Assembly: GCA_016839805.1 (NCBI GenBank)
Contig: JAEOTO010000038.1
Coordinates: 1-35,924, forward strand
From: Candidatus Hermodarchaeota archaeon
Lineage (GTDB): Archaea; Asgardarchaeota; Hermodarchaeia; Hermodarchaeales; Hermodarchaeaceae
Length of the DNA: 35,924 nt
Direction of reading: 5' to 3'
Shown here piece after piece: positions 22,577 through 26,171 of the stretch. The position numbers and the translations under genes are program-made. A model generated the notes under the pieces. That model saw only the letters and a list, made by a program, of their open reading frames with translations. It made no database searches and was not told where the DNA came from. Position 1 is the stretch's first letter; every line of letters begins with the position of its first letter.

Positions 22577-23188
22577 ATGTCTGCTATTCGCCGTTTTATG
22601 AATTGGCTGGGCGGCGGTCCCGATTTGAACAAGCTGATCTTCCGTCTGGACGTCTTTTGTCGGAAGCTTGATCTGCAGAGGAAGATGCTAGAAAAAGAGG
22701 CGAGTAAAAGCCGTCAAAGAGCCAAAAAGTACCGTTTGGCAGGGAATATGGATGCCACACGGATGTACCTACAGCACCATTTACGATTCCAAAAATGGGC
22801 TCTAAGTGTTGATGCTTATCGTTTACGAATTGAGGGATTGCAGACCCAATTACGGCAGAGCCAAGCCATGGGCGAAGTCGCAAATATTCTTGGACAGCTT
22901 AATTCTGCTCTGGGTGGTTTGAAGAACCAAGTCAAGGTTCCTGAAGTCGCAAAACTCGTGGACCAAATTGAAGGTAACCTGCGTCACTTCGAGATGACGC
23001 AAGAGGTTGCTGAGGCAGGAATGGAGCGTATGGCGGTCTCCACAGAGGTCACTGATACTGAAGTGAAGGATGCCTTGAAAGAACTGGATTCTGAAATCGA
23101 AGTTGAAACAGGCACATCCCTTCCTGAACCAGAAAAGCGGGTTTCTGAGCTTGAACAAGAAATTCAACGATTGAAGGAGGAGAGCTAG
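22577..23188 (+). CDS. ESCRT-III, Vps2/24/46 (CHMP1-like) class
   Basis: Amphipathic N-helix FMNWL, basic hairpin with GNMD..R, acidic C-half, LP, MIM1-like ELEQEIQRLK. Confidence 0.88.
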   Translation: MSAIRRFMNWLGGGPDLNKLIFRLDVFCRKLDLQRKMLEKEASKSRQRAKKYRLAGNMDATRMYLQHHLRFQKWALSVDAYRLRIEGLQTQLRQSQAMGEVANILGQLNSALGGLKNQVKVPEVAKLVDQIEGNLRHFEMTQEVAEAGMERMAVSTEVTDTEVKDALKELDSEIEVETGTSLPEPEKRVSELEQEIQRLKEES

Positions 23189-23191
23189 TTA

Positions 23192-23824
23192 ATGGTAAAA
23201 TTCTGGGAAAAACTGTTTCCGAAAAAACCTGAACCCAAAGAAGATACCATTGCTCGGATTCATCGAGTGACGGATAAACTCGAAGTTCGTGGTCGCCAGT
23301 ACGAAACGAAAGCAAAAGACTCACGAATTAAAGCCGTTCGGTATGCTCGTCGGGGTGATCGGAAGGCGGCTAAACTCCAATTACGTCGCCGACAGCGGTA
23401 TCTGCGTAAGGCTAGGTTGATTGAGCAAGAAATCGATTTAATGGAACGTGGCGTGGAAGCCATTAATCAAGCTCGTGGCGAAACTGACGTTATCAATGCC
23501 TTGAAAGGTATTGGAAATGAACTGCAGAATCTCCGTGAAACCGCTTCACCCGAAGTGGCCCGTGAAGTCATCCTTGAAACACAAGCGTTAATTGAAGAAG
23601 CCGAAGCCACAGAAGAGATTCTGGGTCTTGGGCTAGACGATGAAGAACTCGATGCGGATGTTGAAGCTGAACTCGAGGATATCGAGACAATGATTGCATT
23701 AGAAGAGGCAGGACAACTGCCCGCGGTACCTGAGGGCGAAGAAGAGCCCTTAGAAACCTCTGAGGAACGCCGCGAACGTACTCGACGAGAATTGGAACGG
23801 CTTAAAAAAGAAGTGAAAGAATAG
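23192..23824 (+). CDS. ESCRT-III, Snf7 (Vps20/32/60) class
   Basis: FWEKLF N-helix, G.RKAA...LRRR, LDDEEL....EAELE, MIM2-like LPAVP, ELERLK. Confidence 0.88.
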   Translation: MVKFWEKLFPKKPEPKEDTIARIHRVTDKLEVRGRQYETKAKDSRIKAVRYARRGDRKAAKLQLRRRQRYLRKARLIEQEIDLMERGVEAINQARGETDVINALKGIGNELQNLRETASPEVAREVILETQALIEEAEATEEILGLGLDDEELDADVEAELEDIETMIALEEAGQLPAVPEGEEEPLETSEERRERTRRELERLKKEVKE

Positions 23825-23845
23825 TTCTTCACGATTCCCAAAACG

Positions 23846-25345
23846 TTACTTTGAATATCGTGGCTCATCGAATCCTCTTCGAGCTCTTAAATCCTGAATC
23901 TGTGCATCGACTAAATAGAGTTCCTGAGTCAATGCGCGATACTGTTTGAAGAATTTCTCATCAGACAGTTTTCCGTCTTCGAACTGACGCTTTAAGACTT
24001 CCATAGTAGATTCGATGCTAAATCGTTGTTGTTCAAGCTGAAACAGTGGATCTCGCTCTAATGTCTCTGTTCGGCGATCTACTAACGAAGATCGGTGAGG
24101 ATAGTATCCCTCATACGGATAAGGACGGGGGATATCCGCAGGACTGGGTTCATCTATCTCTTCAGGCGACACAGCGTAATTGATTAGGATATCCAGTTCA
24201 TTGCGTAGAGAGGACACATCGACTTTCAGGTTTAACACTCGCAGTGAACCTGACGTCGTTACAAGGCTGTGTTCAGAGAAGCTCGTTGCTAAGGTGATTG
24301 CATCCGGGACTTCTTCTAACACCTTGGATGGTCCCCCTATTTTTAGCTCTTCATCCTCAGTGAAGATAACAAGACGGCGACGAATACGACCTTGGAGTTG
24401 AACGTTTTTAATTGTGCTTAAAGACGCTTTATGGACGATCCGCGTTTCTTTCGTGAAAAAGCCTTTTCGTCCCAGAAATAGGAGACGTTTCGTTGTGATG
24501 AAGAGGATTCCGTTACCCATACCTTCATTAACATCGGATTTGTGCAAGTTCACTGGTTGAATAGCAGCAACGGGTCTCTCATTTTCTAAGACTGGTAGAA
24601 ACTCAATGTGGTCGTTGAAGAGCTTGTGCCACTCAGCCATTTGCGTCAGGCGTGTATCAATCATGGCTAATTTGACATCTAATCCATTCACCAAGTCTCG
24701 GCAGTACGCTTGGTAATCCGCGACATCCTCTTGAATTGCCTCAATTAAACCCGCGAGGAGGGGAAAATCGGTAATCGTCCAACGTTCTGGCTGCATAAAT
24801 CGGGTTTTACTCGCGCGGTGCCGTTCAACGACATTTCGGGCTCGAAAGAGAATCCGTTCTTGGACGCTTGTTAGCTCAGTTTTCATCAACTCCAGAAGTT
24901 CCTTCTCTACATCTGGGTCGTGAAGAAAACTTGCCATTCGAAGTTCGCGAATCCGCCACCGTAAGATACGTAAACGTGCTGCAAACCCTGCCAGCAACTC
25001 ATGACCAGTTCGTAACCGATAATATGTTGTTCGAAATCGACCCACCAAATCCTGACGCATGTTATGAATGGGCACGATTTCCTCAGATCCACAATTCGGG
25101 CACAAATGAACCCTTCGTGTAGCCTTTTGGGCGGGTTCTTCGCATTCTGTACAGACCCATTCTTCCTCTTGTTCCTCAATATGATCTGGTCCACAGCGCG
25201 GACAAGTGAAAAATTCACTTAGGTCTTGGCGTGCACAAGGCAGACAAAAGACTTGGCCACATTCTTTACAGTAGCGTTCGGCCATGTTAATGTGGCAGGA
25301 GGGACAGAAACCACTATGTTGTGAATCCACCGCTGGCTGGGACAT
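23846..25345 (-). CDS. B-box/Zn-ribbon, coiled-coil, PH/GRAM-like and steadiness-box (Vps23-core-like) protein
   Basis: CPSC..YCKEC..FCLPC plus three more CxxC; GILFITTKRLLF; Pro/Tyr linker; SIESTM.VL...F.DGKLS...FFKQYR.L.QELY. Confidence 0.8.
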   Translation of the reverse strand: MSQPAVDSQHSGFCPSCHINMAERYCKECGQVFCLPCARQDLSEFFTCPRCGPDHIEEQEEEWVCTECEEPAQKATRRVHLCPNCGSEEIVPIHNMRQDLVGRFRTTYYRLRTGHELLAGFAARLRILRWRIRELRMASFLHDPDVEKELLELMKTELTSVQERILFRARNVVERHRASKTRFMQPERWTITDFPLLAGLIEAIQEDVADYQAYCRDLVNGLDVKLAMIDTRLTQMAEWHKLFNDHIEFLPVLENERPVAAIQPVNLHKSDVNEGMGNGILFITTKRLLFLGRKGFFTKETRIVHKASLSTIKNVQLQGRIRRRLVIFTEDEELKIGGPSKVLEEVPDAITLATSFSEHSLVTTSGSLRVLNLKVDVSSLRNELDILINYAVSPEEIDEPSPADIPRPYPYEGYYPHRSSLVDRRTETLERDPLFQLEQQRFSIESTMEVLKRQFEDGKLSDEKFFKQYRALTQELYLVDAQIQDLRARRGFDEPRYSK

Positions 25346-25478
25346 GAACCTTTCGTCCGTTAGACTCCACATATACTTTTCGTGAAATCCGGTAAACAGT
25401 CTAAAATAGCCTTTAAAACAACTTTAAAGCCGACTAAACTCCTTGAGATGGCGCGGAGCAACCTCAGCTGAGAATTGT

Positions 25479-26171
25479 TTAAGGCTGAAATTTGAATTGC
25501 ACAATTCGACGGTTTAAGGGGAGGGCAACATTATAGATCTGTGTACTAGCAACTTTGGTTTTGCGGACCCCGCGATGTGCGTGACCATGAATTGCCAAAG
25601 GAAGCGAATGTTTGACCAGTAACTCTTCAACGCGTTTACTACCCATCTGGGCAAAGGCTCGTTGGGTCTCACCTCTCAGTGTTGAAAAAGTCGGAGAATA
25701 ATGTGTAAGAAGAATTGTGTAAGGAGTTTTCGTTTTAGCCTTGACCATGAGTGAATCTAAAGTAACGATTCGTTCGGAGTAATGTTCTCGGATTCCCTGG
25801 ATATTCCGTGTTTGCCAAAAGGTGGGCTGATCTAGCACTCCACGGGTGCCAATTAGTGCAACTTCTTTGCCTCGGATAGTGAGATAAACGAGTTCATCAT
25901 CAAGAAAAATAATAGAATCACCAGCGGTAGTCCGTATCGTGTCTTTTATTGAATCGTAGTCGTCGTTTCCAAAACATGAAACAACAGGGCATTCTAATTT
26001 TGCTTCAGTCAGTTTTTTGACTAAGGGACCGATTCCACGAGCATTTCCGCGATTAACTAAATCACCTGCAACCAGAAAGAGATCTGGTTTTTTGCGTAAC
26101 TGACGAAGAGATTGAATAAAGAGTCCCTGGTACTGGGGCCAGTGAATATCGCTGGTGGCAGCTATTCGCAG
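25479..26171 (-). CDS. Calcineurin-like metallophosphoesterase (probable CTG start)
   Basis: The frame is open 111 codons upstream of the ORF-track start: (L)RIAATSDIH, AGDL, FGNDD, THY.P, HGHAH. Confidence 0.88.
   Translation of the reverse strand: MRIAATSDIHWPQYQGLFIQSLRQLRKKPDLFLVAGDLVNRGNARGIGPLVKKLTEAKLECPVVSCFGNDDYDSIKDTIRTTAGDSIIFLDDELVYLTIRGKEVALIGTRGVLDQPTFWQTRNIQGIREHYSERIVTLDSLMVKAKTKTPYTILLTHYSPTFSTLRGETQRAFAQMGSKRVEELLVKHSLPLAIHGHAHRGVRKTKVASTQIYNVALPLNRRIVQFKFQP

Follow-up and report, generated by a model that had tools for sequence, protein, structure and literature searches.

What kind of protein faces the two ESCRT-III genes of this Hermodarchaeota locus, and does the trio work apart from the rest of the ESCRT machinery? 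The window analysed is a whole contig of 35,924 nt. Within it, two plus-strand ESCRT-III genes converge on a minus-strand gene whose product, here called the adaptor, combines zinc modules, long helices, a PH domain, and a steadiness box (SB). The features are as follows; residue numbers for the adaptor refer to a 508-aa frame.

22577 to 23188, plus strand: ESCRT-IIIA gene, Vps2/24/46 class, CHMP1/CHMP2-like; 203 aa from an ATG (Pfam Snf7)
23192 to 23824, plus strand: ESCRT-IIIB gene, Vps20/32/60 class; 210 aa (Pfam Snf7)
23825 to 23845, no strand: spacer between the two convergent stop codons, exactly 21 bp
23846 to 25345, minus strand: Znr_CC_PH_SB family protein (the adaptor), 499 aa from the Met at 25345
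25193 to 25306, minus strand: first zinc module, four CxxC pairs (C23-C60), possibly a RING/B-box-like cross-brace
25091 to 25153, minus strand: third zinc site, a zinc ribbon (C74/C77 ... C91/C94)
24611 to 25069, minus strand: coiled-coil-like stretch made of three long helices, residues 102-254 (AF2)
24284 to 24589, minus strand: PH domain (GRAM/GLUE/bacterial-PH type) at residues about 262-363
24065 to 24160, minus strand: disordered, Pro/Tyr-rich linker, residues 405-436 (AF2 pLDDT <50)
23873 to 24064, minus strand: steadiness box, a helical hairpin, residues 437-500

The arrangement claimed in a preliminary description of this DNA, a "CHMP1-like and Snf7-like" pair converging at a distance of 21 bp on a protein of about 500 aa, is borne out by these coordinates and by the matches of the pair. 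The ESCRT-IIIA and ESCRT-IIIB products score 63.2 and 67.2 bits, respectively, against Pfam Snf7 (cut-off 27.3). The solved structures nearest to ESCRT-IIIA are CHMP2A, CHMP1B, and CHMP1A (E 1e-6 to 5e-6), and those nearest to ESCRT-IIIB are the Asgard Vps20/32/60-like ESCRT-IIIB structures 9fn1 and 9ftl (E 3.5e-12). ESCRT-IIIA is 83-99% identical among the Hermodarchaeota loci, and its C-terminal end is an amphipathic helix that is predicted to be MIM1-like. Since ESCRT-IIIB starts 3 bp past the ESCRT-IIIA stop, the two genes are probably co-transcribed. A search of NCBIfam with all three proteins of the trio gave noise only.

The minus-strand ORF of the adaptor extends from 23846 to 25372, and an upstream in-frame ATG at 25372 would yield the 508 aa used for numbering. 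The start is placed at 25345, the end coordinate also given in the preliminary description, because homologues begin at this Met and an AGGT-type ribosome-binding site fits it. Pfam, alignments, profile search, AF2, and Foldseek together give the domain order as zinc, helical, PH, and SB. The long helical region that had been described corresponds to three AF2 helices at residues 102-146, 153-193, and 202-254 (pLDDT 84-98; 81 is also given for the AF2 model of 102-254). The Pro/Tyr linker that had been described is present in the adaptor as a disordered segment, and its richness in these residues is confined, in the alignment of homologues, to close relatives. That the linker is a conserved motif, late-domain-like or proline-rich as in TSG101, was rejected, as the segment is disordered and is not kept in homologues of 50-60% identity.

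The C-terminus had been called steadiness-box-like, and a comparison with Vps23_core did return a match. The profile of the adaptor family finds the C-terminal core of yeast Vps23 (2p22_A, 2caz_A, and 2f66_A) at E 1.5e-5 to 1e-4, and AF2 places the SB hairpin at 442-499 with a pLDDT of about 90. The adaptor itself scores 18.8 bits against Pfam Vps23_core, under the cut-off of 26.8; two of its homologues carry PF09454. The adaptor SB also aligns with the SB of the UEV-Vps23 encoded in the same genome (hhalign E 2.3e-3). The homology of the adaptor C-terminus to Vps23_core is supported at the level of profiles only.

The GILFITTKRLLF strand, previously assigned to a PH/GRAM domain, sits within a PH fold at about 262-363. 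Pfam matches to this region are sub-threshold (bPH_3, E 6e-4; GRAM, 0.15). The Foldseek hits are PH domains with E values from 4e-5 to 3e-4 (2cay_B, 3dcx_A, and 1lw3 are examples); they comprise the PH domain of Vps36 (2cay_B), the bacterial PH domains 3dcx and 3hsa, MTMR2, and Lam6. The match to Vps36 has an E of 3.9e-5 and a TM of 0.57 over the target, and bacterial PH and GRAM domains match no worse. Basic residues are kept at K278, R296, R329, R331, and R333, and the net charge of the domain lies between +1 and +5 in 16 of 17 homologues. Homology to DH/PH RhoGEFs, which Foldseek also offered, was rejected: the rmsd is 17-25 A, and the likeness lies only in the order of parts, a helical bundle and then a PH domain.

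The N-terminal part contains six CxxC pairs (C23/26, 35/38, 43/46, 57/60, 74/77, and 91/94), enough for three Cys4 sites. All six are invariant across Hermodarchaeota and Thorarchaeota homologues of 25-37% identity, in agreement with the earlier claim of further CxxC pairs beside a B-box-like finger. The B-box-like call for the finger is weakly supported. The first zinc module has the spacing CxxC-x8-CxxC-x4-CxxC-x10-CxxC and matches the RING domains of RNF4 and COP1 at E 2e-5 to 2e-3 (phmmer and profile). Pfam zf-B_box is found, sub-threshold, in 14 of 17 homologues, and zinc-ribbon families score equally well. In VIA, RING and B-box domains make up most of the top matches, and some of these structures were solved with an E2 bound; the Z values are 5.4 to 2.6, which by VIA's own rating may reflect a common arrangement. 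With the isolated module, Foldseek gives no match at E <= 1e-3, its top rows being a PriA Cys-rich region and the RING domain of Bre1. On this weak evidence, the first two zinc sites may be joined in a cross-brace like that of RING or B-box domains instead of being a simple ribbon each. The third site consists of beta-hairpins in the AF2 model and has sub-threshold matches to Pfam DZR and HVO_2753_ZBP.

Judged from its sequence and predicted fold, the adaptor is a member of an Asgard-specific family that is already known, Znr_CC_PH_SB (also Znr_PH_CC_SB; asCOG cog.011556), which has been predicted to be an ESCRT-I-like, membrane-associated component (Makarova et al., mBio 2024, PMC10936438). 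The parts listed there are three zinc ribbons, a coiled coil, a PH domain, through which the protein is predicted to associate with the membrane, and a C-terminal steadiness box. The adaptor has each of them: three N-terminal zinc modules of CxxC pairs, long helices (AF2) that lead from these modules to the PH domain, the PH domain, and the C-terminal SB. It also shares the ESCRT neighbourhood of the family, which is restricted to Asgard archaea as far as searched. Unlike the published three ribbons, the first two sites here may be cross-braced. In the published account (PMC10936438), the Lokiarchaeum GC14_75 member, As_004-p_01543, is a 650-aa protein encoded two genes from a Vps20-family gene. 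Set beside it by description, the Hermodarchaeota adaptor is smaller (499 aa) because its linker before the SB is short. Table S3 of the same paper has no row for Znr_CC_PH_SB; elsewhere, cog.011556 has been used as the "Steadiness/Vps23 box" asCOG (bioRxiv 10.1101/2023.07.25.550441). The literature found on the family is a computational description, and the function given in it is a predicted one.

The family is widespread. The adaptor profile finds matches at E <= 1e-10 in 265 of 400 Asgard species genomes. In a representative library it matches 150 clusters, including forms of 600-830 aa with a longer linker. Proteins of that length from genomes labelled Promethearchaeota are reached at E 1e-30 to 1e-50, with matches to both the N-terminal part and the SB. 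In several Asgard families, the profile matched in none of the genomes (0/31, 0/12, and 0/22). If these genomes carry ESCRT genes, the adaptor is not universally required. A closed Asgard genome of 4.4 Mb (G138) holds a homologue; if this genome is that of a cultured strain, localisation and interaction work on the adaptor homologue would be feasible.

Does the trio form a module of its own? Within the 36-kb contig, no vps4, ESCRT-II, or ubiquitin-system gene was found near the trio. To this extent the preliminary description was right, and the observation favours its reading of a non-canonical ESCRT module, one that would be self-contained and function independently of Vps4, ESCRT-II, and ubiquitin. 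However, the ESCRT-III pair represents the only Snf7-family genes found in the whole genome (87% complete), and the rest of the machinery is on a second, short contig of the same genome (C47), which contains E2, UEV-Vps23, Vps28, Vps22, Vps25, and Vps4, and ends just upstream of vps4. In relatives, the cluster is either uninterrupted or differs by an insertion of about 6 kb. In Hermodarchaeota YT1_014, all of the genes are contiguous, ending with Vps25, Vps4, the two ESCRT-III genes (E3A, E3B), and then the adaptor on the opposite strand. In a genome of another family (G011), the order is the same from vps25 onward, with vps25 and vps4 directly upstream of the ESCRT-III genes that face the adaptor, and in Thorarchaeota SMTZ1-45, vps25 and vps4 are directly upstream of a single ESCRT-III gene that faces it. 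Given the Snf7 count, the content of the second contig, and the gene order in relatives, the canonical Asgard ubiquitin-ESCRT cluster is split in this genome, and the trio is its distal end. Since the cluster is merely split, there is no second, non-canonical module here, and we regard the non-canonical reading as very improbable.

The linkage between the adaptor and ESCRT-III, whose conservation was tested across genomes, is kept stop-to-stop in genomes of five GTDB families, a count that includes the Thorarchaeota genome with one ESCRT-III gene, and in a looser form in three more. Among loci with enough flanking sequence, convergent pairing is seen at 14 of 15 in Hermodarchaeota and at all 10 in Thorarchaeota.

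What, then, does the adaptor do? The explanation that we consider likely is that the trio is an ESCRT-III operon plus Znr_CC_PH_SB at the end of the canonical cluster, with the adaptor belonging to an ESCRT-I-like headpiece. The SB hairpin would dock the adaptor into this headpiece next to the corresponding hairpins of UEV-Vps23 and Vps28, and the adaptor would occupy the place held in eukaryotes by Vps37, a protein for which Asgard archaea have been reported to lack a clear homologue (Hatano et al. 2022, PMC9192718). The helical region would serve as a stalk. The PH domain, which is mildly basic, could keep the complex on the membrane, and the acidic zinc module could recognise a partner, ubiquitin, or cargo. 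Once assembled, the complex would act through Vps22/Vps25 on ESCRT-IIIB and ESCRT-IIIA, and Vps4 would recycle ESCRT-III. This mechanism as a whole is inferred. The earlier view of a single adaptor that joins ESCRT-I assembly with membrane or cargo recognition finds agreement here, as its domain calls hold and the same inference was made by Makarova et al. (2024). In hhalign, the adaptor profile gave no match to two unannotated proteins of 97 and 179 aa encoded in the C47 cluster; judged by this comparison, neither is a free-standing SB relative of the adaptor.

Two other readings leave the trio in the canonical cluster and assign the adaptor a different task. It could be a CdvA-like recruiter that, bound through its PH domain, recruits or nucleates ESCRT-III itself and bypasses ESCRT-I and ESCRT-II, as CdvA does with CdvB in TACK archaea. 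The immediate neighbour of the adaptor is ESCRT-III, stop-to-stop in the five families, and never an ESCRT-I gene, an arrangement that agrees no less well with a direct link to ESCRT-III; still, assembly order is not readable from gene order. A closed Thorarchaeota chromosome has the adaptor/ESCRT-III pair with no adjoining vps4, and this genome gave no match to an MIT domain. The SB hairpin has been reported as similar to CdvA by HHpred, and proteins with a Zn ribbon, a coiled coil, and a CdvA-like part have been described in Thermoproteales (both in Makarova et al. 2024, PMC10936438). However, by sequence the hairpin is most closely related to Vps23 cores, and the adaptor has no match to Pfam CdvA (PF18822) at E <= 1. 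In addition, the ESCRT-III proteins here (~205 aa) gave no Pfam match other than Snf7; thus, no winged-helix extension of the kind that binds CdvA is detected in them. We judge such a recruiter to be possible but rather unlikely.

The zinc module suggests a different role, that of a ubiquitin-system part. In this case, the cross-brace finger would be a RING-type E3 (or a B-box-type self-assembly unit) that works with the E2 of the cluster and ubiquitinates or regulates parts of the ESCRT machinery, for example the SB of UEV-Vps23. The matches to RING domains and the E2-bound structures given above point this way, the E2 gene belongs to the same cluster, and an Asgard cascade of E1, E2, and a RING E3 has been reported to ubiquitinate the UEV-Vps23 SB (preprint 10.1101/2023.07.25.550441). 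Against it are the low VIA scores, the absence of a significant Foldseek match, the uniformly sub-threshold Pfam matches, in which zinc ribbons do as well as B-boxes, and the published description of three zinc ribbons (PMC10936438). Furthermore, RNF4 has a basic "linchpin" residue just after its last cysteine; in our reading, this position is occupied by Gly here and by His in Thorarchaeota. This role is improbable.

The preferred explanation, an adaptor in an ESCRT-I-like headpiece, can be extended further. The adaptor could be the third core subunit that Asgard ESCRT-I is missing, a functional stand-in for Vps37/Mvb12 with membrane anchoring through PH and a RING/B-box-type finger of the ubiquitin system. 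Its pairing of zinc fingers with a PH domain could then have preceded the Vps36 GLUE domain in evolution or have arisen in parallel with it. We consider this full version unlikely; if true, functions that are divided among ESCRT-0, ESCRT-I, and ESCRT-II in eukaryotes would be combined in a single archaeal protein, the division having come later. Asgard ESCRT proteins are central to ideas on the origin of eukaryotic membrane trafficking, and the adaptor, a predicted subunit that is widespread in Asgard archaea and confined to them as far as searched, unites zinc fingers and a lipid-binding fold with a hairpin of the kind used in ESCRT-I assembly. To the published account, the present analysis makes modest additions: the conserved terminal position in the cluster, the split of the cluster, and the possible RING/B-box-like nature of the first zinc sites.

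The adaptor resembles several known systems in part. With TRIM proteins it shares a small, cross-brace-like zinc finger followed directly by long helices, and its first three CxxC pairs are spaced like those of B-box1. However, its last ligand pair is CxxC rather than His/His, B-box matches are only sub-threshold, and it has neither a preceding RING domain nor SPRY or another TRIM C-terminal domain. With Vps36, whose GLUE domain carries NZF zinc fingers in yeast, it shares a PH fold and zinc fingers within an ESCRT protein. Unlike those of Vps36, its fingers are N-terminal and not inserted into the PH domain, and the EAP30/winged-helix core is absent; Pfam matches to EAP30 and GLUE families were not found. 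As for membership in ESCRT-II, homologues of Vps22 and Vps25 are separate genes on C47. The TRIM-like and GLUE hints of the preliminary description thus survive as resemblance, not as family membership.

Vps23/TSG101 and the Asgard UEV-Vps23 share with the adaptor a helical stalk followed by the C-terminal SB hairpin. In place of their UEV domain, the adaptor has its zinc module and PH domain; no UEV or UQ_con Pfam match was found at E <= 1, and the UEV-Vps23 of this genome is a separate gene on C47. Vps37 combines a membrane-binding element, a stalk helix, and an SB hairpin. The adaptor gives no Mod(r)/Vps37 Pfam match at E <= 1, and it would share this build, which would make Vps37 a functional analogue only.

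The feature under study comprises two genes on the + strand and a third that converges on them:

22577-23188, + strand, ESCRT-IIIA gene E3A (Vps2/24/46 class, 203 aa)
23192-23824, + strand, ESCRT-IIIB gene E3B (Vps20/32/60 class, 210 aa), starting 3 bp past the E3A stop
23846-25372, - strand, open reading frame of the large adaptor protein, convergent with E3B

Exactly 21 bp separate the stop codons of E3B and the adaptor. Homologue starts place the adaptor start at the Met codon at 25345, preceded by an AGGT-type ribosome-binding site, yielding a protein of 499 aa and agreeing with the end coordinate of the preliminary description (residue numbers below count from the upstream in-frame ATG at 25372). 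Both ESCRT-III proteins exceed the Pfam Snf7 cut-off of 27.3 bits (E3A, 63.2; E3B, 67.2). The pair had been called CHMP1-like and Snf7-like, correctly so, because the nearest solved structures are CHMP2A, CHMP1B, and CHMP1A for E3A (E 1e-6 to 5e-6) and two Asgard Vps20/32/60-type ESCRT-IIIB proteins for E3B (E 3.5e-12 and 1.4e-9); in Asgard nomenclature they are ESCRT-IIIA and ESCRT-IIIB. The C-terminus of each carries an amphipathic helix that may be MIM1-like. Downstream of the adaptor lies a metallophosphoesterase-like gene (25479-26171, - strand), listed at just 119 aa, whose frame is open for ~231 codons with 73% identity to a 234-aa homologue. ATG, GTG, and TTG are all absent at its expected start position; translation probably begins at the CTG at 26171-26169, which follows GGAGAGG by 8 nt.

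Convergent pairing of the adaptor with ESCRT-III is conserved. Among loci with enough flank, it is present at 14 of 15 in Hermodarchaeota and 10 of 10 in Thorarchaeota; genomes of three further GTDB families have the same pairing, and in three more ESCRT-III lies 1-9 kb from the adaptor. The sole exception in synteny is Hermodarchaeota isolate H02S_124, where a 379-aa ORF without a Pfam match (L022:6544-7683, + strand) occupies the place of the ESCRT-III pair.

The genome containing the window as contig C29 (2.31 Mb, 50 contigs, 87% complete) has as its nearest named relatives MAGs labelled Hermodarchaeota, and its adaptor is 97% identical to a protein of isolate H03M_Hermod_104 and 79% identical to that of Ca. 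Hermodarchaeum yapensis. The proposal that the trio forms a non-canonical ESCRT module is refuted: no Snf7-family gene besides the window's two was found in the whole genome, the rest of the ubiquitin-ESCRT cluster lies on contig C47 (locus L008, G000:C47:1-6686, 6.7 kb), and in a related genome, YT1_014, the two parts are contiguous. C47 encodes E2, a 179-aa helical protein, UEV-Vps23, Vps28, a 97-aa ORF, Vps22, Vps25 (-), and Vps4 (-), and ends ~60 bp upstream of vps4. Two of its features are:

L008:230-814, - strand, E2 gene
L008:3664-3957, + strand, 97-aa ORF between vps28 and vps22

The 97-aa ORF lacks any Pfam match and does not resemble the steadiness-box profile. Two other Hermodarchaeota genomes have it in the same place, with 77-87% conservation, and it is possibly an undescribed small ESCRT-cluster protein. 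In Hermodarchaeota YT1_014, a single cluster runs from E2 (-) through the helical protein, UEV-Vps23, Vps28, the 97-aa ORF, and Vps22 (+) to Vps25 and Vps4 (-), E3A and E3B (+), and the adaptor (-), followed by the same downstream genes as in the window. Ca. H. yapensis keeps this order, with an insertion of ~6 kb separating E3A from vps4, and Thorarchaeota SMTZ1-45 has Vps22 (+), Vps25 and Vps4 (-), one ESCRT-III gene (+), and then the adaptor (-). One text on the diversity of ESCRT protein families states that Hermodarchaeia "have none" (PMC10936438, section 6). However, Ca. H. yapensis and YT1_014 (compared at L036 and L038) carry UEV-Vps23, Vps28, Vps22, Vps25, Vps4, both ESCRT-III genes, and the adaptor; the sentence probably refers just to extra multidomain families. 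The closed Thorarchaeota chromosome CP070658.1 (L026/G001) has a single Snf7-family match and, across the whole chromosome, no MIT-domain match; its lone ESCRT-III gene and adaptor ORF end at adjacent bases, and the ESCRT-III gene is followed by a 1086-aa protein without a Pfam match. This may represent a reduced ESCRT set.

The adaptor is assigned to Znr_CC_PH_SB (asCOG cog.011556) by its architecture, which is identical, and because the family profile reaches the long-linker forms of 600-830 aa. The interpretation as an ESCRT adaptor is supported, though already published: Makarova et al. rate the family as a likely ESCRT-I component and expect its PH domain at the membrane (PMC10936438). 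One entry in Table S2 of that paper places a 650-aa Lokiarchaeum GC14_75 member two genes from a Vps20-family gene, and a 2023 preprint uses cog.011556 as a "Steadiness/Vps23 box" asCOG (10.1101/2023.07.25.550441). Full-text searching of the literature turned up neither a further paper describing this architecture nor an experiment on it. At E <= 1e-10, 265 of 400 Asgard species genomes contain a match to the family profile (67/90 high-quality genomes, 49/85 genera), including 16/18 in the window's own family and 125/135 in the largest; three Asgard families have no match at this threshold (0/31, 0/12, and 0/22). Within the adaptor match of four same-genus genomes (G105, G106, G107, G108), the whole-genome search flagged "1 TAG", which may reflect the alignment overrunning the C-terminal stop codon.

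The gene trio and domains of the preliminary description are confirmed. Six CxxC pairs (C23/26, 35/38, 43/46, 57/60, 74/77, and 91/94) are invariant in Hermodarchaeota and Thorarchaeota homologues despite identities of only 25-37%. The first four (CxxC-x8-CxxC-x4-CxxC-x10-CxxC) align with the RING domains of RNF4 and COP1 (E 2e-5 to 2e-3), and a VIA search against all representatives returned almost exclusively RING and B-box domains, at Z values of 5.4 to 2.6 that, the tool warns, may reflect a common arrangement. Residues 20-114, modelled on their own with AF2 (pLDDT 90), had no significant Foldseek hit, and Pfam zf-B_box and DZR (double zinc ribbon) give sub-threshold matches in 14/17 and 17/17 homologues, respectively. 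A putative RING/B-box-like cross-brace is therefore plausible. Ten of 17 zinc modules (window 25031-25315, - strand, and homologues) have sub-threshold matches to PF22586, an ANCHR-like B-box. ANCHR is an abscission-checkpoint protein that binds Vps4; the matches are probably coincidence. The published account of the family describes "three Zn ribbons" (PMC10936438).

When the whole protein is modelled with AF2 from 17 homologues (mean pLDDT 81), three long helices (residues 102-254) are followed by a beta-sandwich with a helix cap (~262-363) and a disordered linker (405-436). By Foldseek, the sandwich groups with PH domains, its matches being 2cay_B, the N-terminal PH domain of Vps36 (E 3.9e-5), two bacterial ones (3dcx and 3hsa), MTMR2 GRAM-PH, Lam6, and BBS5; the Pfam matches to bPH_3 (E 6e-4) and GRAM (0.15) stay below threshold. 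The domain is net positive in 16/17 homologues.

The adaptor is predicted to be a widespread Asgard ESCRT subunit. In the likeliest reading, its steadiness box would dock to the steadiness-box hairpins of UEV-Vps23 and Vps28, placing it in the third ESCRT-I headpiece position, which is held by Vps37 in eukaryotes; a clear Vps37 homologue is reported to be absent from Asgard archaea (Hatano et al. 2022, PMC9192718). The long helices would serve as a stalk, the PH domain would hold the complex on the membrane, and the acidic zinc module may bind cargo, ubiquitin, or a partner. The leading alternative, a CdvA-like protein that would directly recruit the adjacent ESCRT-III, is favored by the gene order. 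The steadiness box is the C-terminal hairpin (residues 442-499). The family profile gives three hits to the C-terminal core of yeast Vps23 (E 1.5e-5 to 1e-4), two homologues carry PF09454, and the hairpin aligns with the steadiness box of the same genome's UEV-Vps23 (hhalign E 2.3e-3). Of the two outcomes that would have refuted the preliminary description, a C-terminus unlike the Vps23 core and ESCRT-III linkage that is not conserved, neither was observed. The hairpin resembles the steadiness box of Vps23 at the profile level, although Pfam Vps23_core, at 18.8 bits, falls short of its cut-off of 26.8.
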